Shown piece by piece: positions 9,701 through 36,677 of a stretch of 64,000 bases of DNA. Within the stretch, counting starts at the first letter, position 1. Every line of letters starts with the position of its first letter. Both the position numbers and the translations under genes were made by a program. Under the pieces are notes generated by a model. The model was not told the DNA's origin, ran no database searches, and saw nothing but the letters and a program-made list of their open reading frames with translations. Source of the DNA: an uncultured Polyangiaceae bacterium (GTDB taxonomy: Bacteria > Myxococcota_A > Polyangia > Polyangiales > Polyangiaceae); the NCBI GenBank assembly GCA_964599485.1, contig CAZRGL010000002.1, positions 2,780-66,779 of the forward strand, in the 5' to 3' direction.

Positions 9701-10671
9701 GCCTGGGTGATCAGCTCGTCGAGGATCTCCCAAGCGGCCTGCATCTGTCCTGCGCGCGCGCAGGCATCAGCCCGTGCATAGTCGGGGTGGTCGATGCCTT
9801 CGACGGGGCTTTCTTTGGCGGGCAACAGCTCGGTGACAGCCTGCAGCACTTCGACGCGGGCTCCAGGAAGATCCCGGAAATGCTGCAATGCGCGCCGAAC
9901 TCCTCGCGCCTCCTGCTCCGTGCTCGGCACCACGCCCAATACCGAGCACGCCTGACCAGCGATCACGGCCATGTACAAGTCCTGAGACGCACACAAGCCA
10001 CGCAGCACCTGCTCGCGATCGTTGCGCTGCCGTGTCAGCAGGGCCTCCACCTTCTTGACCTGATCGCTGCCATCCGAACCGAGGTATCCACAACTTGGAG
10101 CCAGCAGTGTGCGTACGACGTCGTAGCCGGCCGCACCCAGCTCGCGGTCGTCGCCGATTGCCGTCCGCAGATGCTCCGCTACCAACCAGTCGATGATGCG
10201 TTCGACAGCAGGCCGATGGCGAATGCGATCATCGAGCCAAGGTTGACCGAGTGTGACCGCTTCGAGGCCGTAGCGAGGCGCGAGCGCCATGCCAAAGATC
10301 GGAGACAGGGCCGCAGTCGGCGGCTGTTGGCTGAGCATACGGCCGAATGCCTCGTCCAAGTTGCTGACGAAGCCGGGTTCTTGCACGCTGATCAAGCGCT
10401 CGTCGATATCGAGTAGCGAGAAGCCTGACTCGCGGTAGCCGCGGGTCAGCAGGTTTCGCAAATAGGGGCGCGCCCAGCTGACCAGCGGGCGGAACGACGG
10501 CACCCGGCGAACCGTGCGCAGTAGCAGCTCGATGGCCCATAGCGATCCGAAGCTCCCGTCGAGGGCGAAGGGTTTTCCGAGGCGGCGCTCGTGCTCGGCG
10601 CGCTCATCGGGCGACAGCCTGCCGATTTGCTTGCTCGAGCCGCTCTTGTCGCCAGTGTCGGGCCCCGCCAT
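3790..10671 (-). CDS. Giant multidomain protein (2293 aa): N-terminal unknown/TPR region, Ser/Thr kinase, TPR, multiple WD40 repeats, FHA, TssB(VipA)-like segment, divergent TssC(VipB)-like domain
   Basis: The start is set at ATG 10671 (MAGPDTGDK), 4 nt after the stop of the upstream TssC-like gene.
- Kinase (about 8330-9170): LGAGGMGKVY, ALKIP, HQDMKPANVML, DFGLAK, SPEQ.
- FHA (about 5400-5605): IGRAQDCDIVLRRPLVAHHHAMLSVDERGAKVIDAGSRIGIELDG.
- C-terminal tail (3793-5322): PLPLSLLVLGAIDT...QPLVVTDVDSAMATLKPQLQFSMP is TssB-like. ALDQILFDPRMRQHERCWRSLASL, YGAIVMADPIDDPALLTAAATIA and WLQYWLDTF...LRCDLWLGP are colinear with the neighbouring TssC-like protein. Confidence 0.85.
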   Translation of the reverse strand: MAGPDTGDKSGSSKQIGRLSPDERAEHERRLGKPFALDGSFGSLWAIELLLRTVRRVPSFRPLVSWARPYLRNLLTRGYRESGFSLLDIDERLISVQEPGFVSNLDEAFGRMLSQQPPTAALSPIFGMALAPRYGLEAVTLGQPWLDDRIRHRPAVERIIDWLVAEHLRTAIGDDRELGAAGYDVVRTLLAPSCGYLGSDGSDQVKKVEALLTRQRNDREQVLRGLCASQDLYMAVIAGQACSVLGVVPSTEQEARGVRRALQHFRDLPGARVEVLQAVTELLPAKESPVEGIDHPDYARADACARAGQMQAAWEILDELITQAPQRAAYWCYRGHVAERIGRDSEQSYEDYDRAISLQPDYWQALINRGVLLSRNRRYDDADRDFMLVCVLRPDCGDTRNNLLLNYLFRRREQLGFGPEAGREASADRAAEHRARKRARAAEETRPPKNAAEPAAEHEKRKDAAQPRALEPPKEQAPSSSLGSAGGGAGRKQIVDDDGGDWHLYEVIEPLGAGGMGKVYRVHHLGWGIDLALKIPRVELLERGGVEGFVEEAEAWSRLGVYPHTVDCYYVRMRSGAPWLFAELVDGGSLADWIDKGKFRRAKSKTDQQLLASMIDVALQMSYGLHHAHRHGLIHQDMKPANVMLTKTGIAKVTDFGLAKTTRLAEPAAESSKGGRHKTLMAGYAGMTPVFCSPEQAAAARKKDVELTRRTDVWSWAVTVLHMFTGEIRWMSGVLAPHALRQYLDDGGWDERIPMMPPRLVGLLQHCFARDPNERPTDMLEIAATLRSIYVELSGARQARPDPAAHEEQAVVHNNRGASMLDIGRNSEALSAWKQALDAEPHHLEASYNLALIEWRNGDITDEQAVERMRAATSSHAMEWRAHLMQAWLHYERADRKRAQACCVRALTGTARTEATMKRVAGPYHGTKAGFQLERLTELPSPPHALSTSRDERVVASAHHDGVRVWMLAGGTSLQGAKINAQHVALSTNGSVAAAANAESIIVWKTAATDSQRINMPGVTGLALCNEHQLAAAVGKRIVLIDVDTGQNQDLGTHGGRVNSVTAMADGRLLASASDDATVTLRLLDGKVTRTLRHELAVDWVALTADARRAVSGGWDAERSHYRLSIWDAVSGSLVRRLEEPAPRRAVMSDDGRHVLSWSSSGTLRLWHVDSGRCLRTAAPLDDVHAIACADADPVLVAAGGHLHLVQVLHDAPAAPIMVARPRHSDVLELQHQRFRAALGRTEGALKLGDLPGALLYLAETTAVPGYRRHRDAQALATRIAHRTTRGVLRSSWAGRSIRDLGGPVQAVGLAPDGDSVTSVMYDAGRNLIEVRRHDTMEGKQRAVMHVVEPKRPFEAAAIAADASVVATACGGNVRIWRIDQGHSQLLAGKRHPSALRWSRDGRLLFVAGQMGITIWDTAAERWLDPVGCGAVQAMAPAAEADAMAVVAGDGALSLWVLGARQELRQLSDAAADVEQLRITPSASMTAMLDGNSTLITIDAEAGVVKGDLTIERASTLALSDDGGLVAIGDSRGGVHLHALNTPGKLVRLGSHNNVILSLAFTPDGRLLASGGRDGDLRLWHVEHERVLPSDTSLRRAAPWLKLFLRAQRPAEHDPLIRIGIPSWTNAELEHLGRRLGWLGFGRHTPKQLEDALQRLLDPKAFAEQPEQPGSTVLQLREEATDRIFEVGAGPRRLIGRAQDCDIVLRRPLVAHHHAMLSVDERGAKVIDAGSRIGIELDGQPVRGEATLEDGAMLRIGITRLLVKLQHQRAAAPPRAFELSRLPMRLQLEQHRAGQSLGRREPLPLSLLVLGAIDTAHSGAAATEQPLVVTDVDSAMATLKPQLQFSMPANEALALPASNELFAPTCLADLAPGKLAQQLGDTAKMYFSYIGLGWWETIIDDFATQLAALLPRLGDKLRAGQPAGSTALSAANEIAEVYGRAIISRLVPTDHPAYAVARGTLAGMLHVLVSHGRNKIDREEVVWAKQTIARGVAKALDQILFDPRMRQHERCWRSLASLQAAMPDADCRLHLLACGSKGPAAVINNGALRRALMQAYAQSTPYGAIVMADPIDDPALLTAAATIARQSQAGLIAGTTPEARRLLQTAPSNGWRAFFADPASSHVALLGEQLSLREPYAIEEKMPYVEGAVSGRQPAPIQSSGAIAAAQSLLRGFESRGLMALDIDQIATEADTRSGARSFRSTFPMGRLAQHLRLMHLGSSRRDDTDACRAWLQYWLDTFTKQLSDASGTQLRGALQLTEQDQHWLRCDLWLGPQDNPAAAASSCMWLRRTTQG

Positions 10672-10675
10672 GCGG

Positions 10676-11992
10676 CTAATCCTTTTGGAGCTTTCCTTCG
10701 AGGGTGATGGTGAGCGGGCCGCCGCGCTCGGCCCAGTTGGGCTTGAGCGCGAGCTCGAAACGATAGCCGCGCGGGCCCGTGTCCTGGACCTCGATGTGGG
10801 CTTCGTAGAAGGGACGCCAACCGATGGCGAACCCACCTGGCTGGCGAGCGCCGACAACATAGTCAGAGAGCCATCGCTGCAGCCCGGTGCTCACCGAGAA
10901 GCGGTCCTTCCAGCAACCGATGTTCTCGCGGTGCAACACTTTGATCATTTGCCCGATGCGCGTTGCGACCAACAAGCTCGGCAGCTCGGCGTTGCGTGGA
11001 TCGTTAGCGGTCGAGGGGTCGAGCAGGCAGGGTGTCTCGGCCACGAGCGCGCCTTCGCCTTCGGTGCTGGGCTTCAGTGTCATGATGCCCAAGTGCGCCA
11101 GGGCAGCACGTTGCTCGTCAGCGAGCACTGCTTCGAGCGGAGTGATGTCCTGCAATTCGGGAGCGAAGGGCACCGCGCCCGGCAACCGAAGTCCCCAGCC
11201 TGTCTCCTCGAAGCTCGCCGCCAACCGTATCCCCACAGCAAGCATGGCGCTGCCCCAGAGCAGGTCCTCTGGGCAGTCAATGCGCTCGTCGTGCCCGTCG
11301 TCATCAGCGGTGTAGGGCATTCGCAGCAGCACCCGGCCGAGAACCAAAGCGCAATGACGAGCCTCTGGTTTCTGCCGCAGCGCTTGCCATCGCACGCGGG
11401 CGGCTTCGTGCACTTCGAGCTGTTGTTGTTCGCCGATGACCCCGGCGTCTCCCAGTTCATGGACCGGCTCGGCTCCAACCAAAACGGGGTCCACAGTCGC
11501 CACAAAAGGAGCGTGGGCCGCTGCTGCTGTAGTGAAGCATTCGGAAAGCAGCCCCATGTCTTGGGGGGAAGGACCGAAGGTGAAGTCCGCCATGACCAAG
11601 CCGAAGGGGGTGCCGCCAAAACTGCCGAACTCACCGGTGTGGAGAAGGCTGTACAAGCCGGCTCTTTCGATGCGTGGTGCGTCCTCGAAGTCCATCAGCA
11701 GATCTTCTTGCGAGATGCTCAGCATCTGGACACGAACTCGGCGATCCTCGGTTGCAACAGTGCTCAGCCAATGCAGCCCGCGCCAACGCGCTTCGAGAGC
11801 CTGCAGGGTGGGGTGGTGCAGGATGAGATCGAGCTGCCGAGCGATACGTCGATCCAGACTGGCGATAGCGGCGGCTACGTCGTCGAAGGCTTCGTGGGCT
11901 TCGCGGACGCCTTCGAGCAAGGCCCCCACCAGCACGTGCTCGGCCAGCGCGAGGTCGCTGAGTGTCGGTTGGTCCTTGTGTCGCTTGTCCAT
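10676..11992 (-). CDS. tssC: T6SS contractile-sheath large-subunit (TssC/VipB/EvpB)-like protein
   Basis: Motifs typical of TssC:
- RQLDLILHHPTLQALEARWRGLHWL
- LSISQEDLLMDF
- GEFGSFGGTPFGLVMADFTF
- AAAAHAPFVAT
- RWQALRQKPEARHCALVLGRVLLRMPY
- LQRWLSDYVV
- YRFELALKPNW
The ATG at 11992 overlaps the upstream stop (TGATG). A TTG at 11995 is an alternative start. Confidence 0.8.
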   Translation of the reverse strand: MDKRHKDQPTLSDLALAEHVLVGALLEGVREAHEAFDDVAAAIASLDRRIARQLDLILHHPTLQALEARWRGLHWLSTVATEDRRVRVQMLSISQEDLLMDFEDAPRIERAGLYSLLHTGEFGSFGGTPFGLVMADFTFGPSPQDMGLLSECFTTAAAAHAPFVATVDPVLVGAEPVHELGDAGVIGEQQQLEVHEAARVRWQALRQKPEARHCALVLGRVLLRMPYTADDDGHDERIDCPEDLLWGSAMLAVGIRLAASFEETGWGLRLPGAVPFAPELQDITPLEAVLADEQRAALAHLGIMTLKPSTEGEGALVAETPCLLDPSTANDPRNAELPSLLVATRIGQMIKVLHRENIGCWKDRFSVSTGLQRWLSDYVVGARQPGGFAIGWRPFYEAHIEVQDTGPRGYRFELALKPNWAERGGPLTITLEGKLQKD

Positions 11993-13170
11993 CAACCCAT
12001 GCCGATGGCGGTTTCGAGGTGCGTGCGAATCGCGCGACGTAGACGCACGGACATATCGGTGAACGCTTCGCGATCGGGTAAGCCCACTTCGATGGTCGCG
12101 ACCGCGCCCCAGAGGTGGCTCGGGAGTGCCGAAATCATCCTCGGGTAGAACTCAGCGCTCCTCTTGGGCTCCGTCGGGGAGTACGCCAGCAACCACAAGA
12201 ACATCGTTGCCACCGCTTCGAAGAGGGCCCCCTGCGCCGGCCCATGCCGCTCGGCGAGTGAGGCAGCGATCGTCTTGCCTGGCTCCATGACCGGGTACAT
12301 CAAGCTGTCGCTCACATCCTTGCCGAGATCTCCCGTCAGCGGTGCGAATTCAGGCAAGGAGATGCCGAGGGCCGTCGTGATTTCGTTGGCAAGAGTCAAC
12401 TGCGCTTTGGTTGCGACCTGCATTTCTGGATTGCATCGCACGCTCGATAGCGTCGACAGACACTGGGCCAGATGATTGATGAGTAGGCGGGCGCCGGCGT
12501 TGCTGTCGGGGATGGCCGTGAGATCTACACTTGGTATCTGTACGCGCTCAGCCTGGCTTGAGGCAGCATCGTCCTGGGCCTCGAGGTTGGGCGCTCCGGT
12601 CGAAACAGCGTCTTGTCGTCTGACAACAGGGTCTTGTTTCCTGAGGAAGTCATAAGCTTCGCCGTACGCGTCGAAGATCAGCTTGCTTGCGTTGCGACCT
12701 GCCTCGGCGACGATTTCGTCGATTCGTTTCTGAAACGACTTGGGCAATCCGCCAGCCGCAGCACTGCCGCGCAGCGCTTCGGCGATGGCGTCGAGCATTT
12801 CACCCCCGCCCGAGCCGACGACGTCGACGAAACAGAGCTTGAGAGCGCACTCGAGCAACGCCAGGTGATCATTGCCGAGCTTGGCGACGGGCTGCTTCAA
12901 TGCTGGGCCAGCCGTCGTGAGCACGTACTTGAGCGCCAGAGCTGACCCTCGGCCGTGGTCGCTCGTGGGCTCGAACAGCGGCGGAAGCTCGGCGCCGATG
13001 ACGTCGCCCAGGTGTACGGCTTTTGCAAACCAAACGCCGCTGAGCTCGAGCTCGGAACGGCCGTGGAAACTGGCTGCCCAAGCGGTCCATTGGGCCAAAC
13101 GCCAAACCAGCGCTCGGCTGCTGATCCCCATGGTCTCGAGCTTGGCCGACAGGATGCGATCGTTCATCAT
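11992..13170 (-). CDS. Hypothetical protein (392 aa), co-oriented and translationally coupled with the TssC-like gene
   Basis: A complete ORF (MMNDRILSAKLETMG...) whose stop overlaps the next gene's start (TGATG at 11990-11994). I recognise no domain. Confidence 0.6.
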   Translation of the reverse strand: MMNDRILSAKLETMGISSRALVWRLAQWTAWAASFHGRSELELSGVWFAKAVHLGDVIGAELPPLFEPTSDHGRGSALALKYVLTTAGPALKQPVAKLGNDHLALLECALKLCFVDVVGSGGGEMLDAIAEALRGSAAAGGLPKSFQKRIDEIVAEAGRNASKLIFDAYGEAYDFLRKQDPVVRRQDAVSTGAPNLEAQDDAASSQAERVQIPSVDLTAIPDSNAGARLLINHLAQCLSTLSSVRCNPEMQVATKAQLTLANEITTALGISLPEFAPLTGDLGKDVSDSLMYPVMEPGKTIAASLAERHGPAQGALFEAVATMFLWLLAYSPTEPKRSAEFYPRMISALPSHLWGAVATIEVGLPDREAFTDMSVRLRRAIRTHLETAIGMG

Positions 13171-13218
13171 GATTCGGCCTCTCGCTGACCAGCAGACGAG
13201 ACTGAGGCGAACAACAGC

Positions 13219-15330
13219 TCAACCATAGAGCCAGCCTCGTTGATGGGCGTGATTTCGAAACGAGTCAGCAAGCTTGCGGTAGGCGCCGGCGATGGCACTG
13301 AGGCGCGTCCGCGACCAACGTCCGGCGGGCTGCTCGTCGCGGGCTCTTTTTCCCATTGCGGTGAAGAAAGCGTCATCTGGCATCGTTTCTTGGCCAGCAG
13401 GTATGAACTTGATCACCTCATCCATGAACGCTGCCGCTCGCTCGATGACGTTGAGCGCCACGATGCCTTCGTCTCGGTCGAGGCCGTCCAGCGACGCGGG
13501 CGTCTGTTTGGCGAATCCTTCGGCGAAACTGAAGAACTGCCCCGCGTCGATCAGCTCCGAAGGCGTATCTCCGGCGCTGTACTGGATGGGGCCATCGCCG
13601 CTCGTTGCCGCCATGTCGGCTTTGCTGATTCGAAACGTGAATGTTCTGGTTGCGGCGCCCTCATTGCGGCATTCGTACTGCACCACCACGTCGGCCTCCT
13701 CGGTGGTGATGGATTGTTTGCGACCCTGGACTGGGTAGTTGCGAAGGTTGAGATAGACGCTGCATTCGGCCAGTGACCGGGCGCGCAAGGGTTGGGTCGT
13801 GCCGTCAGCGTCGTCTGGCTCGGCCTCGTCCGCCTCTAGCTCGACGCGCGCTCGACCCATGACCTTGCCGTCTTGGACCATCATCGGTTGGGCAAACAAG
13901 CCTTGATCACCGCTGGCGCGGAACACCTTGTCTGCACTGTTCGCCAAGCGCACCACGGCCGCCCCATTCTGCATGCTGCAAGCGAGCACCACCCCGCGAA
14001 CGGGGATCGCGACGAGCAAGACCTTCGAGTCGAGCTTTTGGTGCAACACCTTCAATGCGCTCGGCACGAGCAACGCCTCGGTCGCGTGCTCACCGTGTAG
14101 GCTCGCCACACGTGGCGGATCGCCAACTACTTCGAGTCGCGGCGATTGCTTTTCGGCGAGCATGCGTGCCCCTTGGTCGACGAGCTCGTCGAAGCTGCGC
14201 GTGCCCAAGGTTTTTGCCGTCGCAAGATGGTGACCGTTGGCTGTCTCGGCAGCCAAGCAAACCATGGGGCTGACGATTGGGTGGGTTGGATCGGTGGGTG
14301 GGGCGAGCGGTCGAGTCAGCACAGAAGCCGTCAAGCTGGGATGATCTTGGCGCAGGATGTGAGGCTGATAGTCGCTGATCACGGCGCTGTTCAACGCAGC
14401 TCGACTTACCGGTGCGGCTGTGGCCAGCTGATCGTGGATGACTGCGGAGCTTGCCGACGCGATGCTGGCAGGGTCAGGCTTGGCAGGGTCAGGCTTGGCG
14501 GTGTCGGGTTTGGCAGCGTCTGGTTTGAGGGAGCCGATGGAAATGGGGCCACCCGGTTGCTGGACGGGCGCGCTGTTGGCTGGTTGGGAGGCTGGTCTGT
14601 CCACCCCCTTGAGCGTCGCGTCACTGAAGGCATGCGCTACCGCCTTGGGCGGGATGGGACCGGCACAGTTGAAGACGATCCCGTCGATGGGCGCGATGCG
14701 TAACTGCTCGAACAGCGTCTTGCCGTCCACTTTGGTGTGCGGCGGAACCGAGGCGCCATGCCGGGCGCGAAAAGCCTGGTAGGTGTCCTCGGCGGTGAAC
14801 ACGGCGGCGAGGCGGCGGCCCTGGTTGTCGGGCGCCATCATCAGCTGACTGCCCTGCCAGCAGAAGCGGTAGCCCGGGTAGTTGCGCAGCAGCTCGAACT
14901 GATTGTCGCGCTTGGAGTTGCCTTGCAGAATCTCTTCGACTCGCACCGCCTGGCCGAATTCCGCAAGCAAAGGCAGATCCTGAGCGTAGAGCGCCATGCC
15001 ATGGGGACTGGCCAAATCGAGGCCCACGCCGCGCGCTCCGCCCGGGATGTTACGGGCTAAGGATCCGCCCGCCGTGACGAAGAAGTTGTCGCCAATGGTC
15101 AGCTTGTTGGCCTGTGCGTACGCATCCATGGCCTGTTTGCTGGAGAAGGCGCACACCCACCACTCGCCCGCCGAGCCGGGGAACATCCACAGCCCCGACG
15201 ACCCATCGGCGGCGATACGGCTGGGCACGTGCCAGCTCGGGTGCTGCACCAGGTGACGAAACGCTTCCGAGTGGGAGCTACTGCCCTGCTTGTGGGCCGC
15301 CATGGCGTGCACGATTTGGGGTTCGGTCAT
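13219..15330 (-). CDS. Hypothetical protein (703 aa) with two N-terminal SseB-like repeats and a (KPDxA)n linker
   Basis: This is the real 5' part of the 1489-aa track ORF. The start is ATG 15330 (MTEPQIVHAMAAHKQG). Two similar modules (WHVPSRIAADGSSGLWMFPGSAGEWWVCAFSSKQAMDAY and YRFCWQGSQLMMAPDNQGRRLAAVFTAEDTYQAF) are reminiscent of the SseB family. The SseB assignment is tentative. Confidence 0.65.
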   Translation of the reverse strand: MTEPQIVHAMAAHKQGSSSHSEAFRHLVQHPSWHVPSRIAADGSSGLWMFPGSAGEWWVCAFSSKQAMDAYAQANKLTIGDNFFVTAGGSLARNIPGGARGVGLDLASPHGMALYAQDLPLLAEFGQAVRVEEILQGNSKRDNQFELLRNYPGYRFCWQGSQLMMAPDNQGRRLAAVFTAEDTYQAFRARHGASVPPHTKVDGKTLFEQLRIAPIDGIVFNCAGPIPPKAVAHAFSDATLKGVDRPASQPANSAPVQQPGGPISIGSLKPDAAKPDTAKPDPAKPDPASIASASSAVIHDQLATAAPVSRAALNSAVISDYQPHILRQDHPSLTASVLTRPLAPPTDPTHPIVSPMVCLAAETANGHHLATAKTLGTRSFDELVDQGARMLAEKQSPRLEVVGDPPRVASLHGEHATEALLVPSALKVLHQKLDSKVLLVAIPVRGVVLACSMQNGAAVVRLANSADKVFRASGDQGLFAQPMMVQDGKVMGRARVELEADEAEPDDADGTTQPLRARSLAECSVYLNLRNYPVQGRKQSITTEEADVVVQYECRNEGAATRTFTFRISKADMAATSGDGPIQYSAGDTPSELIDAGQFFSFAEGFAKQTPASLDGLDRDEGIVALNVIERAAAFMDEVIKFIPAGQETMPDDAFFTAMGKRARDEQPAGRWSRTRLSAIAGAYRKLADSFRNHAHQRGWLYG
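14467..14526. repeat. 15-bp in-frame tandem repeat x4 (two perfect copies, two degenerate)
   Basis: ggcagggtcaggctt occurs twice, followed by ggcggtgtcgggttt and ggcagcgtctggttt. On the minus strand these encode KPDAAKPDTAKPDPAKPDPA. Confidence 0.8.
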
Positions 15331-15432
15331 CAAGCGCGCTCCGTTGGTGGTTCTACCAGTCTGGGGCGCAGGATTGTGCCTTGTTATCGGTCTAGTAGAC
15401 GCCAGCTCGAGTTTCGCCAACCCTTGGCGAAC
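15331..15432. promoter_or_regulatory. Divergent intergenic region, presumed to hold the promoters for both arms of the sheath/ClpV/kinase locus
   Basis: This is a 102-nt gap between the minus-strand start at 15330 and the plus-strand start at 15433. I could not recognise a specific -35/-10 or -24/-12 element. Confidence 0.3.
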
Positions 15433-18400
15433 ATGAGTGCCTACTTGAGGATCGCCGCCAGCGAGAAAGGGGGGGCCGCGGGCCAGATCGCACGCTTTGA
15501 TGAGGAAGGCGGCGTCGCGGTGCTTGCGGATGGGACCGGCGGAGCGGCAGGGGAGGCCATGGCTCGGGCTGCAGTCGAACCGGCGTTGAAGACGCTCCTG
15601 GCCGAGGGCTCGGTCGAGAAAGCCTTCGCGTCTGCCCACCAAGCCGCTTGCACGCAGAGTGAGGATGAAGGCGCTGGCGCGAGCTTCATCGCGGCTCAGA
15701 TTGACCGGACCGGCACGTTGGTGGTCGGTCATCTCGGCAATGTGCGCGTATACATCGCGCGCAAGACGAACAGGCGCCGGGGTCTTCCGAAACCGCCGGC
15801 ACCGCTCTTCTGTCCCCCTGTTCAGGTCGGCTCGGTCAAGCCGATCGAGACGGCCATGAGCATGGTCTGCCTCAGTCGCGATCACAGCGCGGTTTGCGAT
15901 ATGGTCGAGGGCGGGCATTTGTCGGCGGAGGATGGGCGCAAGCATCCGCTGCGCGGGCGGGTGAGCAAGGGCTTGCGGGCCGGTCCGCTGACGCCTCCAA
16001 CGGTGACGCACATGCGGCTGTTTCCGGATGATCGCGTGCTGCTCTGCTCGGATGGGCTGTGGGATGCAGTGAGCGATCGCGACATGCTTGCTGCGCTGGC
16101 TGAGCACCATTTTGCAGACGACGCTTGTGAGGCATTGGCCGAGCGGGCAGGGAGCAAGTGCTCCTTTGCGGCCGTAGTCATCGATTGTTTTCCCGATCGC
16201 GAGCGCGACGAAGCGCGACGCAATTTGCAGCGCGGACACAAAGCGCAACGCAAGAAACGGGCGAGCAAGAAATCCGGCCGCGAAAAACAGAAGCGTCCCA
16301 GCAGCGAGCGACCCCGTAGCGAGCAGCCCCGTAGCAACAAGCGCCGCAGCAGTGAGCCGCCGAAAAACGGCGACATCATTCGGCGAATGGGGCGCAATCT
16401 CACCGCGCTGGCCATAGCTGGCAAGCTCGATCCGGTCATCGGGCGAAAGCGTGAGGTGCAGCAGCTCGCACAAGCACTCGTGGCGCGGCGCAAAGCCAAC
16501 GCGGTTCTCATCGGTCCGCCCGGCGTAGGCAAGACCGCCATCGTCGAAGGGCTGGCCTTGCAAATGGCAACTGGTGGACTGGGTGATCGTTTTGCCGACA
16601 AGCGTATCGTCGAGATGTCGATGGGCGCGCTGGTCGCAGGCACCAAATATCGCGGCCAGTTCGAAGAGCGACTGCAGGAAGTCATCAGGATTGCCGAGGA
16701 TGATCCAGAGCTGGTCATCTTCATGGACGAGCTGCACACGGCCATGGGCGCCGGTGCGACTAGCGGTAGCGCCACCGATGCTGCGGATTTGCTCAAGCCG
16801 GCGCTGTCGCGCGGCAGCATGCGGCTCATCGGCGCCACTACGACCGAGGAGTACCAGAAGTACATCGCCCGCGACGCTGCCTTCGAACGCAGATTCATCG
16901 TCATCGACGTCAAAGAGCCTTCGGTCGGGCACACCATCGAGATTCTCCAGGGGCTGCGCCCTTCCTTCGAGAAGCACTACCAAGTGCAAATCGTCGATGA
17001 GGCCTTCGAGGCCGCGGCAACGCTTTCCAAGCGCTACATTCCGGGGCGGTACTTGCCCGACAAAGCAATCGATCTGATCGATCGCGCCTGCGCCCGTCTG
17101 CTGGTGCCGCTCACGCCCACCCCGGGCGACGGTAGTACGCTTCGGCGTGATCACATCGTCAAGCTCGTGGCCGACATGTGCGATGTGGACATCGAGTTGA
17201 TCGGCCGCGATGTGCGCGAAGCACGGGAGCGGGTGGGCGAGCTGCTGAGCTACCTCACCGCGCGCCTCTTCGGGCAAGACGCGGCGATGGGTGTGGTGGC
17301 CCGGCAGCTCAAGCGCGCTTACGGCGGACTCAAGGATCCGAAACGTCCCATCGCTTCGTTCCTGTTTGCGGGACCGACCGGTGTCGGCAAGACCGAGACC
17401 GCCAAGGTCGTTTCCGAGTTCTTGTTCGGGGACCGCGATCGGGTTCTGCGGATCGACATGTCGGAATACGAGAGCCGCTGGGCCGTCTCGCGGCTGATTG
17501 GGGCACCGCCGGGCTACATCGGTCACGACGAGGAAGGGCAGCTGACGGGTCCCATGCTCCGGCAAGGGGCGCGGGTCGTGCTCTTCGACGAAATCGAAAA
17601 AGCCCATCCCGACGTGCTGCTGGTGTTGCTGCAGATTCTCGACGAGGGGCGGCTGACCGACTCGCACGGCCGTGTTGCTTCCTTTCACGAAGCGGTCATC
17701 GTCATGACCTCCAACCTGCTGCAGTCTGGCCCGGTTGCGCGCAAAGCCAAGCAGCTGGGCTTCGCATTGCCCAAGAAGGGCGCGCAGTCGGAAGAGGCCG
17801 AGGAACAGGTCGAGGATGACAGCGCGGCGCGCAGCGAGCTCGCCAAACAGCTGCGCCCCGAGCTAGTCGGTCGAATCGGCGCCGTGGTGACCTTCTCGTC
17901 GCTTTCGCCCGAGGCGGCGAAAGCCATCGTGAACAAATGTTGCAACAGCGCCCTGCAGCGACTGCAAGCGCAAGGCGTGGCGCTGCAGTTGCCGGATGGT
18001 TTCCAACAGCGTGTGCTCGAACGTTTGGGCGATCTGCGCTTCGGGGCGCGCATGGTCGAGCGTTTGGTCGACGAAGAGGTCGGCAAGCTGCTCGATCGGT
18101 CCCAGCCTAGTGCTGGCCGGTCGGATGCCAGCATGGGAGCGAGCATGCACGCCAGCATGCGAGGCTCAGCACGAAACGACGTGGCCATGTTGGCGCTCGA
18201 GCTGCCGGAGGGGGTGGATGCCGACGAGGCCAAGCTTCATGCGTTGGTCGCCAAGGTGTGCATCGGCGCGCAAGCTGCCCAGGTGCGCCATGTGGATGCG
18301 TGTGAGGGCCGCGTCGTCGTTCTCGCTGCGACCTTGCGCGCTGCTCTGGCCATCGCGCGGCGCCATGACAGCTTGGATGGCAAAGGGCTGCGACGCTTGG

Positions 18401-18648
18401 TGCATCGGGGCCGGGTGCAGCTCGACGAACAAGGCAATCCTCGCGGCGTCGGCTTGCATGTGCTCGAGATGCTTCGCGGTGTGCTTGCTGAGCATCGAGA
18501 GACGGCGGGCCAGTTGGTGCTCTCTTCAGCTGCTCACGAGGCGCTCGACGCCGACGCGCGCGCCGGCTTCGTGCCGCTCGAGAGCGAGACCTTGCGGGCA
18601 ATGGGTAGCGACATCAGCTTGTGGACGGACGCAGGGAGGACGGCGTGA
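15433..18648 (+). CDS. PP2C (PPM) phosphatase fused to a ClpV/ClpA-type double AAA+ unfoldase, with an unknown C-terminal extension of about 250 aa
   Basis: Start at ATG 15433 (MSAYLRIAASEKGG).
- PP2C: VLADGTGGAAGEAMA, VGHLGNVRVY, LLCSDGLWDAV.
- AAA+ D1: LDPVIGRKREV, GPPGVGKTAIVEGLA, KYRGQFEERL, VIFMDELH, LIGATTTEEY.
- AAA+ D2: GQDAAM, FAGPTGVGKTE, RIDMSEY, LIGAPPGYIGH, VVLFDEIEKAHPDV, ILDEGRLTD.
I see no long coiled-coil M domain between D1 and D2. Confidence 0.85.
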   Translation: MSAYLRIAASEKGGAAGQIARFDEEGGVAVLADGTGGAAGEAMARAAVEPALKTLLAEGSVEKAFASAHQAACTQSEDEGAGASFIAAQIDRTGTLVVGHLGNVRVYIARKTNRRRGLPKPPAPLFCPPVQVGSVKPIETAMSMVCLSRDHSAVCDMVEGGHLSAEDGRKHPLRGRVSKGLRAGPLTPPTVTHMRLFPDDRVLLCSDGLWDAVSDRDMLAALAEHHFADDACEALAERAGSKCSFAAVVIDCFPDRERDEARRNLQRGHKAQRKKRASKKSGREKQKRPSSERPRSEQPRSNKRRSSEPPKNGDIIRRMGRNLTALAIAGKLDPVIGRKREVQQLAQALVARRKANAVLIGPPGVGKTAIVEGLALQMATGGLGDRFADKRIVEMSMGALVAGTKYRGQFEERLQEVIRIAEDDPELVIFMDELHTAMGAGATSGSATDAADLLKPALSRGSMRLIGATTTEEYQKYIARDAAFERRFIVIDVKEPSVGHTIEILQGLRPSFEKHYQVQIVDEAFEAAATLSKRYIPGRYLPDKAIDLIDRACARLLVPLTPTPGDGSTLRRDHIVKLVADMCDVDIELIGRDVREARERVGELLSYLTARLFGQDAAMGVVARQLKRAYGGLKDPKRPIASFLFAGPTGVGKTETAKVVSEFLFGDRDRVLRIDMSEYESRWAVSRLIGAPPGYIGHDEEGQLTGPMLRQGARVVLFDEIEKAHPDVLLVLLQILDEGRLTDSHGRVASFHEAVIVMTSNLLQSGPVARKAKQLGFALPKKGAQSEEAEEQVEDDSAARSELAKQLRPELVGRIGAVVTFSSLSPEAAKAIVNKCCNSALQRLQAQGVALQLPDGFQQRVLERLGDLRFGARMVERLVDEEVGKLLDRSQPSAGRSDASMGASMHASMRGSARNDVAMLALELPEGVDADEAKLHALVAKVCIGAQAAQVRHVDACEGRVVVLAATLRAALAIARRHDSLDGKGLRRLVHRGRVQLDEQGNPRGVGLHVLEMLRGVLAEHRETAGQLVLSSAAHEALDADARAGFVPLESETLRAMGSDISLWTDAGRTA

Positions 18649-19946
18649 AGGTCACGCTCACAGTCATCGAAGGGCCCAATTTGGGCCGCGAATTCGCCTA
18701 CGAGCAACGGGATCGCTTTCTGGTGGGGCGGACGCCAGCGGCGCATCTGTGCGTCTCACGAGATCGCTTCTTTTCGCGGCATCATTTCTTCGTCGAGGTC
18801 AATCCGCCCAACGTCTACCTGGTCGATTTACACAGCACCAACGGCACCAGCGTCAACAGTCGCAAGAACAAGGTCGAGGAGGCCACGCTCGAGCATGGCG
18901 ACATCATCATCGGGGGCGAAACGAAGCTCCGGGTGACCATCGACGACGGCGTGGACGAGTCGGCTGCCGCTGAGGCAAACGAGTCGCGCGAGCAGGTCTG
19001 TTGTCTGAAGTGTGGCAAACATGCCGAACGCGAACGGGCGCGCTCGAGCTCGGAGTCCGTGACCTTCATTTGCCAAGGTTGCCAGGAGAACCTGCGCGGC
19101 CAGCCGATCTTGCCGCAGGGTTATCGTGTGGTTCGTGAGCTCGGTCGCGGCAGCATGGGAAGCGTGTATCTGGCCGAGGACGGTGCCGGCGCGCAGCGGG
19201 CGATCAAGCTCGTCATGCCGAATGCGGCCTTGTCGGCTAAGGTGCGCAACCAGTTCCTCGAACAATCCAGAGCGCAAGCGCGCCTCGACCACCCGCGCAT
19301 CGTGCGCGTCTACGGCGTCGAGCAGCCGCGCGAGGGGGTGTTCTGCGTCGTGATGGAGCACATCGATGGACAGGCGCTCTCGAAACTCATCGCCAATCAG
19401 AACAAGCTCCCAGCTCACAAGGTCGTGCTGATTGCAGCCCAGCTCCTCGAAGGGCTCGACTATGCCCACGGGCGCGCGATGGTTCATCAGAACATCAAGC
19501 CCGCCAACATTCTGCTCGCTCCCGATCGGGGCGAAGCGTCGGGCGGCCTCGCTGTCAAGCTGGCCGATTTCGGCCTGGCGCAGACCTACGAGCTGACCGG
19601 CGCGAGCGGTTTTGCGCGCCTGGACGAAGTGGACGAGTCGCTCGGCTACAAGGCCCCTGAGCAGATCATCGACTTTCGCGGCGTCGATCCGAGGTCGGAT
19701 CTGTACGCTGTTGCGGCGGTCGGCTACCGGATGCTCTGCGGTGAATTGCCCTACGCGCTCGATGCGGGCCGCGATCCCTTCTTGGCGCTGCTCGAAGACG
19801 AAATCGTGCCGCTGAGGAAGCGAGATCGGACAGTGGATTCTGCGTTGGCCGCTGTGATCGAGCGGGGCCTGGCCCGACGCCCCGCCGACCGCTACAGCTC
19901 TGCGGCGAAGATGCGTGAAGCACTGTTGGCTGCCGCGCTCCGCTGA
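18621..19946 (+). CDS. FHA domain, CxxC...CxxC zinc ribbon and a Ser/Thr kinase-like domain in which the catalytic Asp is replaced (HQN): predicted pseudokinase
   Basis: - FHA: FLVGRTPAAHLCVSRDRFFSRHHFFVEVNPPNVYLVDLHSTNGTSVN.
- Zn ribbon: CCLKCGK...FICQGCQ.
- Kinase: GRGSMGSVYLA, AIKLV, MVHQNIKPANILL (aac codon at 19491-19493), DFGLAQ, APEQ.
An alternative start, GTG 18645, overlaps the upstream stop (GTGA). Confidence 0.85.
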   Translation: MDGRREDGVKVTLTVIEGPNLGREFAYEQRDRFLVGRTPAAHLCVSRDRFFSRHHFFVEVNPPNVYLVDLHSTNGTSVNSRKNKVEEATLEHGDIIIGGETKLRVTIDDGVDESAAAEANESREQVCCLKCGKHAERERARSSSESVTFICQGCQENLRGQPILPQGYRVVRELGRGSMGSVYLAEDGAGAQRAIKLVMPNAALSAKVRNQFLEQSRAQARLDHPRIVRVYGVEQPREGVFCVVMEHIDGQALSKLIANQNKLPAHKVVLIAAQLLEGLDYAHGRAMVHQNIKPANILLAPDRGEASGGLAVKLADFGLAQTYELTGASGFARLDEVDESLGYKAPEQIIDFRGVDPRSDLYAVAAVGYRMLCGELPYALDAGRDPFLALLEDEIVPLRKRDRTVDSALAAVIERGLARRPADRYSSAAKMREALLAAALR

Positions 19947-19955
19947 GGGGCTGCT

Positions 19956-20834
19956 TTGCGAAACTTGTGCATCGACTCGAGATGTCCCAAGATCATGGGC
20001 GTGAGCTTGCTTGTTGCGTGCCCGTCTGGCGAACGCCAGCCAACTGTGCTGTTGGTCTCGTGCGTCTTCGCGTTGGCTCTTTGTGGGCTGCTCGGTTGCG
20101 AGAACAAGGTTCGTGCTCCGGCGGGCGGACCGCCTGGCAACACCGTGTCGAGCTCCGGCAGCAGCACGTCGTCGGCCAGCGGTGGAAGCGATGCTGGCGG
20201 CGGTGGTAACAGCGCTGGCGGAAGCACGGCCACCGGCGGGGCCGCAACCGGTGGATCAGCGACCGGCGGGTCAGCGACCGGCGGGTCAGCGACCGGCGGG
20301 TCAGCGACCGGCGGGGCAGGGGGCAACGCCGTCGGAGGAGGCTCCATGGGCGGAGCCGGCGGGCAGGGTCAGGCGCCGGTCGTGCCAGACTTTCATCTGC
20401 CCGACGTCAACGCCACCTCATTGACCTATCAGCTGATGGTCTCGCCGCGCGACTACCTCAAGCAAGTGTCAGGTTGGTACTTCGGGCACGCAACCTGAGG
20501 CTATTGCGGTGTCCAGTTTGGATACCTCGACCAAATGCAGAAGGAAATCAACGCTGCGCCTGCGAAGGTGGCCATTCAGATCGTTGGCGTGAACCAGGAT
20601 CAGCACCAAAGCGGTAGCCCCGCCTTCACCATGAATCGCGACCTGCCTTGGCTCGACGAAGGTCCCATGGATCAAGTCTGGCAGGCCTGGAACGTGTCCT
20701 ACCGCGACGTGGTCATCCTCGATGACGAAAACCGAACCGTCGCCGTCTACAATCTCACCGTGAACGACCTGAGCGACCCGGCCAAATACGCCGAGCTCAA
20801 GACCCTGCTCCTCAGTATAGGCAACGCCCAATAG
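19956..20834 (+). CDS. Thioredoxin-fold (TlpA/redoxin-like) lipoprotein read through an in-frame TGA at 20496-20498: candidate selenoprotein with a UGYC redox motif
   Basis: Track ORFs 19956-20498 and 20535-20834 share one frame and are separated by a single TGA. The joined sequence reads DFHLPDVNATS...VSPRDYLKQVSGWYFGHAT-U-GYCGVQFGYLDQMQKEI...VAIQIVGVNQ, which fits the F.l.D...vs..d..gk....F.a.WC..C...l..l layout of redoxins. The N-terminus has a lipobox (LLGC). The start is either 19956 or 19995. Confidence 0.55.
20256..20315. repeat. Perfect 15-bp tandem repeat x4
   Basis: tcagcgaccggcggg occurs four times, encoding (SATGG)n in the Gly/Ser/Thr linker of the lipoprotein. Confidence 0.9.
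20504..20530 (+). promoter_or_regulatory. SECIS-like hairpin immediately downstream of the in-frame UGA
   Basis: GGUGUCC (20508-20514) pairs with GGAUACC (20520-20526): 7 bp including one G-U pair, with the loop AGUUU. The stem can be extended by 3 more pairs across a C/U mismatch. The apical loop starts 19 nt after the U of UGA and has G at loop position 2. Confidence 0.45.
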
Positions 20835-33981: not shown

Positions 33982-35196
33982 TCAGCGAAGCTCGGCGGAG
34001 CGCTTACCCAGGAGTCTTCTGGCGACGATTAGCATTTGGATCTGCTGGGTGCCCTCGAAGATGTCGAGGATCTTGGAGTCGCGAGCCCACTTTTCGAGCA
34101 GCTGCTTTTCGGTGTAGCCGGCCGCGCCGCACAGCTCGACACAACGCAGCGTGATGTCGTTGCCCACCCGTGCGGCCTTGGCTTTCGACATCGATGCCTC
34201 GACCGAGTTGGGGATCGAGTTGTCGGCCATCCAGGTTGCTTTCATCGTCAACAGTCGCGCCGCTTCGAGCTCGGCTTCCATGCGGTAGATCTCCGCTTCG
34301 GCTGCGCTCGAAGTGAACAAGGTGCCTTCGTGTTTTGCTGCGACGCCTTCGCGGCCAAGCAGCTTCTTGGTGAGCTCGAGCGAAGCACGCGCTACACCCA
34401 CGGCCATTGCCGCGACCAATGGGCGGGTGTTGTCGAAAGTCTTCTTGGCGCCGGAGAGGCCCTTCTGCGCTTGGATCTCCGGGCTGCCGAGGATGTTGGT
34501 CTTCGGAATGCGGCAATCGGTGAAGCTGACCGTGGCCGTGTCGGAGGCGCGAATGCCCAGCTTCTTGTCGAGCCGTTCGACCACCATTCCTGGTGTGCCC
34601 TTTTCGACAACGAAGCTCTTGATGGCTTTGCGGCCCAATTTGCGATCGAGCGTGGCCCACACCACCACCGCGCCGGCGCGCTCGCCAGAGGTGACGAAGA
34701 TCTTCTCGCCGTTGAGCACCCACTCTTCGCCCTCGAGCACGGCGGTGGTGCGCACTGCTGAGGGATCCGAGCCGGCCTCGGGCTCGGTGATGGCCATGGC
34801 TGCCCACAGACCGCCGAAGCGCTTGCGCTGTTCGTCATTGCCGACGGCGCTGATCGCCGAGTTGCCCAGCCCTTGGCCAGGAATGGTCAGCGCCAGACCG
34901 ACGTCGCCCCAGCAGAGCTCGGCCATGGCGAGGGCGGTTGCCATGTTGGCGCCGTTGCGATTGCCGCTCTCATCGGTCTTGCGTTTCTTGCCGCCGCCAG
35001 CGCCAGCGCCAGCCCCAGCTCCTGTGCCGGAGTCGTTCATGCCTTGGAGCAAGGACGCAAGCAAATCGAGCTCCTTCGGATAGGCGTGCTCGGCGGTGTC
35101 GTACTTTCGTGAGATGGGGCGAAAACAGTGCTCGCCGACCTGCCTGGCCTGGTCGATGAGGGGGCGGAGTTTCTTGGGGATTTCGAGATGAATCAT
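33982..35196 (-). CDS. Acyl-CoA dehydrogenase
   Basis: Start at ATG 35196 (MIHLEIPKKL). Motifs: WGDVGLAL, ITEPEAGSD, and the C-terminal ARDSKILDIFEGTQQIQMLIVARRLLG. The longer track ORF (to 35373) would overlap the upstream gene. Confidence 0.85.
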   Translation of the reverse strand: MIHLEIPKKLRPLIDQARQVGEHCFRPISRKYDTAEHAYPKELDLLASLLQGMNDSGTGAGAGAGAGGGKKRKTDESGNRNGANMATALAMAELCWGDVGLALTIPGQGLGNSAISAVGNDEQRKRFGGLWAAMAITEPEAGSDPSAVRTTAVLEGEEWVLNGEKIFVTSGERAGAVVVWATLDRKLGRKAIKSFVVEKGTPGMVVERLDKKLGIRASDTATVSFTDCRIPKTNILGSPEIQAQKGLSGAKKTFDNTRPLVAAMAVGVARASLELTKKLLGREGVAAKHEGTLFTSSAAEAEIYRMEAELEAARLLTMKATWMADNSIPNSVEASMSKAKAARVGNDITLRCVELCGAAGYTEKQLLEKWARDSKILDIFEGTQQIQMLIVARRLLGKRSAELR

Positions 35197-35206
35197 GGCT
35201 TGCTCC

Positions 35207-36535
35207 TCAGACCAGAAGGCCCCCTTCGATGACGCCGATGGCGCGCAGATCCCGATACCAATGTTCGACTGGGTGGTCCTTGACGTAGCCGTGGCCACCG
35301 AGCAGCTGCACTCCGTCGGTGCCGATGCCCATGCCCTTGTCGGTGCATTGCAGCCGCGCCAGGAAGGCCTCACGGCGGAAGCTGCGCCCGAGATCAGCGC
35401 GGCTCGCAGCCCGATAAACCATCAGTCGCATGCACTCGAGCTCGATGGCGATGTCCGCGATCATGAAAGCGATTGATTGCCGGTTGGTGATGGGCTCGCC
35501 GAATGCGCCCCGCTCGTTGCAGTAAGGGATGACGTAGTCGAGCACTGCTTGGGCTGTGCCGACGGCCATGGCGCCCCAACCGATGCGGGCGCGATCAATC
35601 ACTGCGCCGAAGTCGAATCCTTCCGCGCCTTCGCCGCCGAGCAGGGCGTCATGAGGAACCTTGACGCCATCGAGTTGCAGTCGACAGAGGCCAGCGCCCC
35701 GCAAACCCATGGCGGGCTCCGGCTCTACAGTCAGTCCTTGGGCATCGCGCTCGACCAAGAACAAGCGCGGCCCCATACCGGCGACCTTGGCGGCGACCAC
35801 GAAGAGCTTGGCGGTCTCGCCGAGGGGCACCATCGACTTCTGACCATGGAGCGACCAGCCGTCGTCGTTGCGGACCGCACCAGCGCCCAGAACGTGGGGA
35901 TCGAAAAGCGGTCGCGGCTCGAGCAAGGCCATCGCGGCCGGCACGAAGCCCTCCTCGACGAAGGCTGGCAAGTAGCGGCTTTGTTGCTCCGCGTTGCCCC
36001 AGTCTACAAGCGCGTGCACTACTGCAAGAGGAGCGAGAGCCGCGAAGGCGAGCCCCATGTCTCCCCTCGACAGCTCTTCGGCAATGAGCACGGTCGAGAC
36101 TGCCGAACGCTCACGGCCCGCCCCACCTAGCGCCTCCGGAACTGCGAGCATGGTGATGCCTAGCTCGTGGATCTGCTCGAGCAGCTCGGCAGGCGGCGCG
36201 CAGGCGGCGTCGGCCGCTTCAGCCGCGGGCCGCAACATCTCCTCGGCGAAGCGCCGCATGCCATCCTGCACCATGGCCTGCTCTTCAGTAGGTTGCAGAT
36301 CGAAGAGCTTTGGCGCCGTCGGTCTTTCGAGACGTTCGGGCTTGTCTGCCGTCGGTCTGGACTTGAAGAACTTTGCCGCCGATTGAGCAGCCGCGAAGCC
36401 GCTCTTGGTGCCCTCGTAGAGCACCTTCTTCGCGACATCCCTCAGCCCGAGGCGATCGATGAGCTCGGAGCCGCCGAAGCGGGTGAGCAAACCCAGCGAA
36501 GCACCCATGATTCGATTGATCGGGGTCTGGTTCAT
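35207..36535 (-). CDS. Acyl-CoA dehydrogenase family protein (second, adjacent)
   Basis: Start at ATG 36535 (MNQTPINRIMG). Motifs: YCNERGAFGEPITNRQSIAFMIADI and LLGGHGYVKDHPVEHWYRDLRAIGVIEG. Confidence 0.8.
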   Translation of the reverse strand: MNQTPINRIMGASLGLLTRFGGSELIDRLGLRDVAKKVLYEGTKSGFAAAQSAAKFFKSRPTADKPERLERPTAPKLFDLQPTEEQAMVQDGMRRFAEEMLRPAAEAADAACAPPAELLEQIHELGITMLAVPEALGGAGRERSAVSTVLIAEELSRGDMGLAFAALAPLAVVHALVDWGNAEQQSRYLPAFVEEGFVPAAMALLEPRPLFDPHVLGAGAVRNDDGWSLHGQKSMVPLGETAKLFVVAAKVAGMGPRLFLVERDAQGLTVEPEPAMGLRGAGLCRLQLDGVKVPHDALLGGEGAEGFDFGAVIDRARIGWGAMAVGTAQAVLDYVIPYCNERGAFGEPITNRQSIAFMIADIAIELECMRLMVYRAASRADLGRSFRREAFLARLQCTDKGMGIGTDGVQLLGGHGYVKDHPVEHWYRDLRAIGVIEGGLLV

Positions 36536-36677
36536 GCTGCCTAGGCATCTACCAGATATGCCGGTCGGTTCCACGCGCAACGCGTGCGGTTTGAAGGCCG
36601 ATAACACACGTAACGTCACTTTGTAGTAAACAGGACAGCGCCCTTCGCAACGACCACCTATCTCGCCACCGAGCACA

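Follow-up and report, generated by a model that had tools for sequence, protein, structure and literature searches.

The question raised by this locus is whether a TGA triplet in the middle of a long reading frame ends a gene or is read as an amino acid. The stretch under study, here called the window, comprises 64,000 nucleotides (nt) of contig CAZRGL010000002.1 from an uncultured Polyangiaceae bacterium. On its forward strand, two open reading frames (ORFs), 19956-20498 and 20535-20834, lie in one common frame whose sole interruption is TGA 20496-20498, as an earlier note made from the letters alone had stated and as the window sequence and its translation confirmed. Translation through this triplet gives the product ...VSGWYFGHAT*GYCGVQFGYLDQMQKEI..., with TAG 20832-20834 as the terminator. 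We consider it very probable, on the sequence evidence set out below, that this is a genuine selenoprotein gene, in which selenocysteine (Sec) is predicted to be incorporated at the mid-gene TGA of a cell-envelope redox protein. The gene callers used by JGI and ENA break the gene into a fragment of 50-172 amino acids (aa) and another of 99 aa, the kind of two-piece annotation that the earlier note had anticipated. As for the start codon, ATG 19995 is more likely than TTG 19956, since ENA, calling genes independently on a contig that is nearly identical, begins the gene at the same Met.

The residues found at this codon in relatives carry much of the argument. A search of 5.8 billion proteins returned 111 relatives, most of which are pieces of ~99 aa that start just past the stop or N-terminal pieces that end in WYFGHAT or WYFGHST, while a few are full-length forms with Cys, namely P0003 (GHATCGYC), P0006 (GHADCPVC) and P0011 (GHADCPYC). 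A scan of one genome per species yielded 178 relatives, and the codon and neighbourhood counts given here refer to the best 80 of these 178. TGA was found at the Sec codon in 80/80 genomic loci, each from a different species, and Sec appears near obligatory in this WYFGH subfamily (80/80 species). The hosts of the best 80 loci are metagenome-assembled genomes (MAGs) of Polyangiaceae and other Myxococcota, Planctomycetota, Krumholzibacteriota, Eisenbacteria, Latescibacterota, Gemmatimonadota and others, and the closest match in the species-representative genome set is 57-59% identical. Furthermore, an exhaustive profile search of 1.84 billion representatives gathered 2259 family members. When 73 domains from full-length relatives were aligned, the column of the TGA held the Cys of a CxxC motif in 55 of them, Trp (W) in four, a non-redox residue in eight and a gap, from partial domains, in six. 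The earlier note had placed the TGA exactly where redoxins carry their nucleophilic Cys, and had proposed asking whether homologues show Cys or TGA at this codon; they show both, in the proportions just given. Such an exchange of TGA and Cys, as read from these sequences, is the classic signature of a real selenoprotein, and two general marks of selenoproteins were found, the Sec/Cys pair and a UGA kept in orthologues with coding conservation on both sides.

The UGA might instead be read as something other than Sec, either as Trp or Gly by a reassigned code or through near-cognate read-through that needs no selenocysteine insertion sequence (SECIS), and the W recorded at this position in P0004, P0005, P0131 and P0163 would fit such decoding. 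These four entries (GHATWGYC and similar), however, come from short metagenome contigs, and their W probably arose when the gene caller translated TGA under genetic code 4. TGA ends 8 of the 14 JGI gene calls in the neighbourhood and 24 of the 38 crude GC-frame calls in the window, and the kinase gene directly upstream, which ends at 19946, also stops at TGA. Because TGA is the normal stop of most other window genes, a reassigned code is excluded. In addition, homologues show Cys, not Trp or Gly, at the column, and the codon is followed by a covarying hairpin with the signature of a bacterial SECIS (bSECIS) element. We therefore regard decoding as anything but Sec as highly improbable.

The annotated fragments could also be taken at face value, as two genes or the remains of a pseudogene, that is, a truncated lipoprotein ending at the TGA and a 99-aa ORF starting at ATG 20535. 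The JGI and ENA gene callers do annotate two fragments, and this ATG stands just 12 codons past the TGA. However, the split recurs at the same codon in 80/80 species, and every relative conserves, at the protein level, the 12 codons that separate the TGA from the following ATG. Across 78 distinct sequences, aligned without gaps over the region -6 to +45 relative to the TGA, the third codon past the TGA, which encodes Cys, has an invariant T and G (columns 16-17), and column 18 holds only C or T, which is a synonymous variation. This protein-level conservation, together with the synonymous TGC/TGT variation at an invariant Cys, indicates that the stretch after the TGA is translated. The fold points the same way. 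We modelled the Cys homologue P0003, which is 53% identical to the window protein, and the AlphaFold model (predicted local distance difference test, pLDDT, 92.9; predicted template-modelling score, pTM, 0.83) is a single compact domain, with the CxxC at residues 63-66, between a strand (53-59) and a helix (64-82). By this model, the TGA would fall in the middle of the thioredoxin fold, between strand beta-1 and the active-site helix, and not between domains. The earlier note had named homologues with the two halves as genuinely separate genes as a finding that would speak against it; the halves were never seen apart. Since full-length Cys forms also exist, the recurrent split, the protein-conserved gap codons and the mid-domain break effectively refute the two-gene reading, to which we assign next to no probability.

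We then turn to the RNA signal that would mark this UGA for Sec. The earlier note had described a hairpin starting 9 nt after the UGA, and its position, spacing and loop were all recovered in the sequence: a 5' arm at 20508-20514 (GGTGTCC), a loop at 20515-20519 (AGTTT) and a 3' arm at 20520-20526 (GGATACC), with a gap of 9 nt from TGA to stem, a loop that begins 19 nt from the U of UGA, and a G at loop position 2. It lies within the coding sequence, from G172 onward, where it spans the codons of GVQFGY plus one base, the first, of the Leu178 codon. Folded alone as a 37-nt segment, the hairpin has a free energy of -12.7 kcal/mol (z = -2.16), a value matched by 8 of 200 shuffled sequences. Taken by itself it is thus only modestly above chance, suggestive and not decisive, but across relatives it is far beyond chance.

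In the 78-sequence alignment, the stem common to the family has 6 base pairs (bp), 20509-20514 with 20520-20525, including an invariant CC...GG clamp, and the loop reads AGUUU in 46 sequences and AGUUC in 31. Double compensatory changes were counted 21, 22 and 22 times at the column pairs 21-35, 22-34 and 23-33, with 2, 0 and 0 breaks, respectively. The covariation score was 0.371, against 0.145 ± 0.010 after shuffling (none of 500 shuffles reached the observed value), and it was at most 0.081 when the partners were slid by 1-3 columns. RNAalifold predicted the same 6 pairs. There are 25 distinct stems, the stem is perfect in 73/78 sequences, and 77/78 fold at -7.5 kcal/mol or lower. The hairpin is therefore backed by compensatory base changes, as expected of a selenoprotein gene. 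A seventh pair, G20508-C20526, forms in just 16/78 relatives and is an extra of the window copy. The earlier note had also extended the stem across a C/U mismatch; this part did not hold, as the alignment contains zero compensatory changes there, and we rejected the extension, which probably arises incidentally from the codons for Cys and Asp/Asn.

The wobble base of an invariant Gly codon (column 33) follows the second base of a variable codon on the opposite arm (column 23), so that the constraint acts on the RNA and not on the protein alone. The tripeptide QFG, encoded over the loop, occurs in 79/80 Sec forms versus 17/55 Cys forms, a difference to which relatedness contributes, the Sec set being closer-knit. 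In the published bSECIS model (bSECISearch; PMC13188914, Fig. 2), the loop has 3-9 nt, the stem 4-16 bp, the spacing is 16-37 nt and the minimum free energy is -7.5 kcal/mol or lower, and one of the first two loop nucleotides is a G, after which G or U is usual (PMC13188914). With a 5-nt loop, an upper stem of 6-7 bp, G at position 2 followed by U, a spacing of 16-19 nt and -12.7 kcal/mol, the window hairpin falls within all of these constraints, as the earlier note had supposed. Compared with the fdhF element of E. coli, it is much smaller and lacks the bulged U, and a scan of the whole window, hairpin included, against Rfam at gathering thresholds gave no match.

The protein belongs to a family that has been named before. 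With Cys in place of the TGA, the 279-residue protein matched NCBIfam NF053656 (redoxin_TUGYCR, "TUGYCR motif thioredoxin fold (seleno)protein") with 210.8 bits (E 7.4e-63) over profile positions 1-145 of 146, well above the curated cut-off of 100 bits. The window motif T-U-G-Y-C-G agrees with the T-U-G-Y-C-R of the family in 5/6 positions, and in the 80 relatives the second Cys is followed by S, R, V, G, I or K; because this last position varies, the R of TUGYCR is not strict. The T-U-G-Y-C core and the domain length are common to the model and the window protein, whereas the model is without the lipoprotein leader and the long Gly/Ser linker of the latter. The existence of NF053656 means that NCBI curators have already defined this selenoprotein family.

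An older record exists as well. In Dataset S1 of the 2008 selenoproteome paper on the Global Ocean Sampling (GOS) data (Zhang and Gladyshev; PMC2398784), the read JCVI_READ_1650665, which contains ...VSGWYFGHSTUSYCSSQFGYLDTLQ..., is placed under "Prx-like 2" (PMC2398784). Over 150 residues, this read and the window domain share 51% identity (E 6e-51), and JCVI_READ_520201, the first "Prx-like 2" member, is 31% identical to the window protein (E 2e-19). The similarity is thus significant, with the UxxC motifs aligned, and the window protein belongs to Prx-like 2. According to that paper, Prx-like 2 has a UxxC motif, is related only very distantly to the peroxiredoxins, bears a weak similarity to the N-terminal region of selenoprotein P and is commoner in marine samples (PMC2398784). 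The genomes sequenced by then held no strong Prx-like 2 homologue (PMC2398784), whereas the family is now found in many MAGs of several phyla. NF053656 is not listed in a 2026 review of prokaryotic selenoproteomes (PMC13188914), and "TUGYCR" occurs in no paper of the full-text library searched. The novelty implied by the earlier note is therefore not upheld, as both the curated NF053656 and the 2008 "Prx-like 2" cover the family; the protein family is already catalogued, and the note made a correct call on a known kind of gene.

As to what the protein may do, the P0003 model was compared with known structures. Foldseek returned ResA (1su9, 1st9) with a template-modelling (TM) score of 0.80 by target and a best E of 1.6e-9, together with 3gl3 and 4hqz, the top set spanning E 1e-9 to 1e-8; further matches were DsbE/TlpA-like proteins, thiol-disulfide oxidoreductases of Geobacter and Bacteroides, the thioredoxins Etrx1 and Etrx2, which are surface lipoproteins of the pneumococcus, and then the peroxiredoxin AhpE. 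On this model, the protein has two features of the ResA/TlpA/DsbE group, a thioredoxin fold and a redox motif at the N-terminus of helix alpha-1. ResA/TlpA/DsbE (CcmG), Etrx1 and Etrx2 also resemble it in having the xxC active site where helix alpha-1 begins, and they are anchored to the membrane or are lipoproteins, a topology that is predicted for the window protein too. In contrast, the identity of ResA/TlpA/DsbE and Etrx to the family is only 16-25%, and the family has Sec for the first Cys. No cytochrome-maturation or CcdA/DsbD gene was seen near the locus. The Arg of a YRD(V/L)V(I/V)LD strand is nearly invariant in the family; judged by eye, it presumably stands where ResA and TlpA have the cis-Pro (Pro-Thr in ResA), in a strand that resembles the Arg strand of peroxiredoxins more closely than the cis-Pro strand of ResA.

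Sequence comparisons bring in the peroxidase side. The window protein scored 12-14.5 bits against Pfam AhpC-TSA (PF00578), below the threshold of 26, and AhpC-TSA was the commonest Pfam match among relatives (34/40 members, best E 5.3e-8), alongside Redoxin, SCO1-SenC and Thioredoxin_8. The family motif is UxxC, as compared with TxxC/TxxU in the AhpC-TSA/Prx superfamily. The best sequence matches to solved structures were weak (GPx7, Etrx2 and DsbE; E 0.02-0.06), the catalytic Cys of GPx7 aligning with the Sec column, and a phmmer search of PDB sequences with the domain gave only spurious armadillo-repeat and haemagglutinin matches. Taken together, the sequence and the model suggest a Sec-containing UxxC redoxin that would be either a disulfide reductase or a peroxidase. 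Low similarity to selenoprotein P was also reported in the GOS paper (PMC2398784). Indeed, hhalign of the family profile with the N-terminus of human SELENOP, a sequence entered by hand, gave a probability of 62% (E 7e-5, 131 columns) with the UxxC motifs aligned, and Pfam SelP_N (PF04592) was matched by 3 of 40 members with a best E of 0.027, below any curated threshold. Selenoprotein P, like this family, has a UxxC in a thioredoxin-like N-terminal domain (PF04592), and we treat this weak similarity as a lead and not as membership.

Several observations weigh against the selenoprotein reading. The window motif ends in G where the family name has R, and the single-sequence fold of the hairpin has a modest z of -2.16. 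The matches that bear on the subclass of the protein, disulfide reductase or peroxidase, are faint, AhpC-TSA being below threshold and those to structures weak. None of selA, selB and selD was seen among the annotated ORFs of the window and its readable flanks (<70 kb), and a search of the window and 82 related loci with ARAGORN detected no tRNA-Sec. Nor was a second selenoprotein candidate found in the window, where none of 13 other places with an in-frame TGA and coding signal on either side has a redox motif or looks like more than adjacent genes. Because less than 70 kb of the genome is visible, the absence of the Sec machinery carries almost no weight.

These last negatives would also suit a gene that belongs to a true selenoprotein family and survives here as an unexpressed or truncated relic after loss of the Sec machinery, given that neither a machinery gene or tRNA-Sec nor a second selenoprotein gene appears in the ~70 kb available. 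That same figure limits what their absence can say, however, and the gene itself does not look decayed: both halves, the resolving Cys and the SECIS are intact, and the stem even has one extra pair. Four other assemblies have exactly the window sequence from the TGA through the stop (20496-20834). Three of their contigs contain the whole gene, and there the sequence ahead of the TGA departs from that of the window only in a linker repeat, which keeps the frame; the fourth contig is too short to include the gene start. Counterparts of the locus are JGI Ga0115650_1000532 (90 kb, JGI 3300008954) and ENA ERZ23498677, and the NCBI version has ~69.7 kb. From this intactness across assemblies and the perfect SECIS, we argue that the gene is functional in its source organism, and we consider a relic very unlikely. 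The preferred reading thus remains a working selenoprotein gene, whose features are collected in the table.

Table. Features of the predicted selenoprotein gene, in window coordinates.
Feature	Position	Strand	Basis or remark
Complete predicted selenoprotein gene	19995..20834	+	279 codons plus TAG, translated through TGA
Predicted lipoprotein signal peptide, lipobox L-L-G-C, Cys35 codon 20097-20099	19995..20099	+	By eye from translation
Gly/Ser/Thr/Ala-rich low-complexity linker	20100..20381	+	Holds a 15-nt tandem repeat
Thioredoxin-fold (redoxin) domain, residues 130-274, spanning the TGA	20382..20816	+	NF053656 positions 1-145/146; P0003 model
UGA as predicted Sec, residue 168, first position of UGYC	20496..20498	+	TGA in relatives' loci; Cys column in distant relatives
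TGC, Cys171, predicted resolving Cys of UxxC	20505..20507	+	Invariant T and G; third base C/T across 78 sequences
SECIS hairpin, 7-bp stem (6 bp family-conserved), apical loop AGUUU	20508..20526	+	Fold, covariation, bSECIS constraints

The N-terminal region suggests where the protein would act. From ATG 19995 it reads MGVSLLVACPSGERQPTVLLVSCVFALALCGLLGC, in which a hydrophobic stretch is followed by L-L-G-C, and the n-region of the predicted signal peptide has one Arg only. We take the L-L-G-C at Cys35 to agree with the lipobox pattern of PROSITE PS51257, for which a [LVI][ASTVI][GAS]C-like motif with its Cys among roughly the first 35 residues is expected. Similar lipobox-like motifs occur in the relatives P0003, P0004, P0005 and P0011 (A-A-C, L-G-C, G-G-C and G-A-C), and the lipoprotein proposed in the earlier note fits both LLGC and the lipoboxes of myxobacterial relatives, as predicted by eye. 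In the linker that follows, Tandem Repeats Finder detected GGSAT units at 20232-20319 (period 15, 5.9 copies). The window has 4 GGSAT units versus 5 in three other assemblies of the same organism (two JGI, one ENA), a difference that stays in frame and represents either a copy-number polymorphism or an assembly difference. These features point to an extracytoplasmic, tethered enzyme, which would be exported and lipidated.

Other relatives have different ends. In those of planctomycete/verrucomicrobial type (P0043, P0048, P0059, P0076, P0081, P0100, P0120-P0160), the leader is swapped for a secretion-type N-terminus with ...EERLMLSG..., and the C-terminus carries in addition either dockerin repeats or an extension of ~140 aa with many DxDGD motifs. 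The varied termini suggest that one and the same Sec domain is presented extracellularly by different means. P0112, P0116 and P0117 consist of tandem arrays of the redoxin domain, in which the upstream copies have lost CxxC (for example ATSIYS, ATDTAC, TDASTT) and the last copy ends in ...YFGxAT or ...FFGLSS. These array ends presumably mark a Sec UGA, and degenerate domains would then precede one Sec-active domain.

We propose that the locus encodes one exported, probably lipid-anchored thioredoxin-fold redox protein whose first active-site residue would be Sec (T-U-G-Y-C). UGA 20496 would be decoded by Sec-tRNA(Sec) delivered by SelB, which the small mRNA hairpin 9 nt downstream, inside the coding sequence, would recruit. 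The mature protein may be tethered to the membrane through Cys35 and the long, flexible Gly/Ser linker. In catalysis, the selenolate of Sec168 would be the nucleophile that attacks a substrate disulfide, sulfenate or peroxide, and the selenenyl-sulfide then formed with Cys171 would be resolved by a reductant.

The neighbourhood offers no obvious partner for such an enzyme. Clustering of neighbours across the 80 loci revealed no conserved operon partner, and the gene therefore appears to act alone. The largest neighbour clusters were those of FG-GAP/VCBS proteins, in 19 loci, and of Ser/Thr kinases, in 12; each of these families is abundant. The FG-GAP/VCBS-repeat protein has ~630 aa (CRTAC1/ASPIC-UnbV-like, with a C-terminal sorting-type domain) and lies ~2.7 kb upstream of the TGA in 19/80 loci, mostly on the opposite strand; L014, L018, L020-L023, L031, L032 and L037 are among these loci. 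The FG-GAP protein of the window is encoded as far as ~30 kb away, at 50495-53260. Given the abundance of the family, the FG-GAP neighbourhood may be due to chance. A search around the gene and between it and its neighbours gave neither a sigma-70-like promoter nor an intrinsic terminator.

Upstream, window positions ~10600-19950 hold a type VI secretion neighbourhood that includes a VipB/TssC sheath gene. Within it, a protein of 1071-1139 aa (15229-18648, + strand) combines a PP2C phosphatase region with a ClpV/TssH-like double AAA+ ATPase, and the gene for an FHA-Ser/Thr kinase (18621-19946, + strand) overlaps this PP2C-ClpV-like gene by 28 nt. The genes downstream of the predicted selenoprotein gene encode a TPR-like protein of 462 aa and a beta-helix protein of NosD type. 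On the minus strand, a 120-aa ORF (20469-20831) runs antisense over the redoxin domain and appears 'conserved' in 73/81 loci; we rejected it as a gene and regard it as the shadow of the conserved sense gene in GC-rich DNA. Farther along, two adjacent acyl-CoA dehydrogenase paralogues occupy 33982-36733 on the minus strand. Their maximal ORFs overlap by ~170 nt (35207-35373), so the downstream one probably starts well inside its ORF. Some ~570 nt past the right end of the window (L085 17992-19524) lies a gene for a 510-aa fusion of an N-terminal 2-Cys peroxiredoxin domain (AhpC/PrxU-like, E 5e-37) with a Ser/Thr kinase domain, an unusual architecture resembling a redox sensor, which adjoins a radical SAM gene.

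The practical value of these results lies in annotation, as a predicted envelope redox protein of 279 aa is recovered once the UGA is read as Sec, in a family whose database entries are mostly fragments. The analysis further provides a SECIS model of the family that covariation supports well (6-bp stem, AGUUY loop, 10-nt spacer), indications that the SECIS loop constrains the protein sequence (QFG), and a picture of the distribution of the family. Beyond this, we raise as a speculative idea, one that we think is probably not correct as it stands, that this bacterial family is linked by descent, as a counterpart, to the N-terminal UxxC domain of selenoprotein P in animals, and that its members are exported, membrane-tethered and near-obligately Sec-dependent peroxidases or disulfide reductases of the envelope or extracellular space. 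If true, this would place an unusual Sec-dependent enzyme outside the cytoplasm, in the largely aerobic Myxococcota and Planctomycetota.

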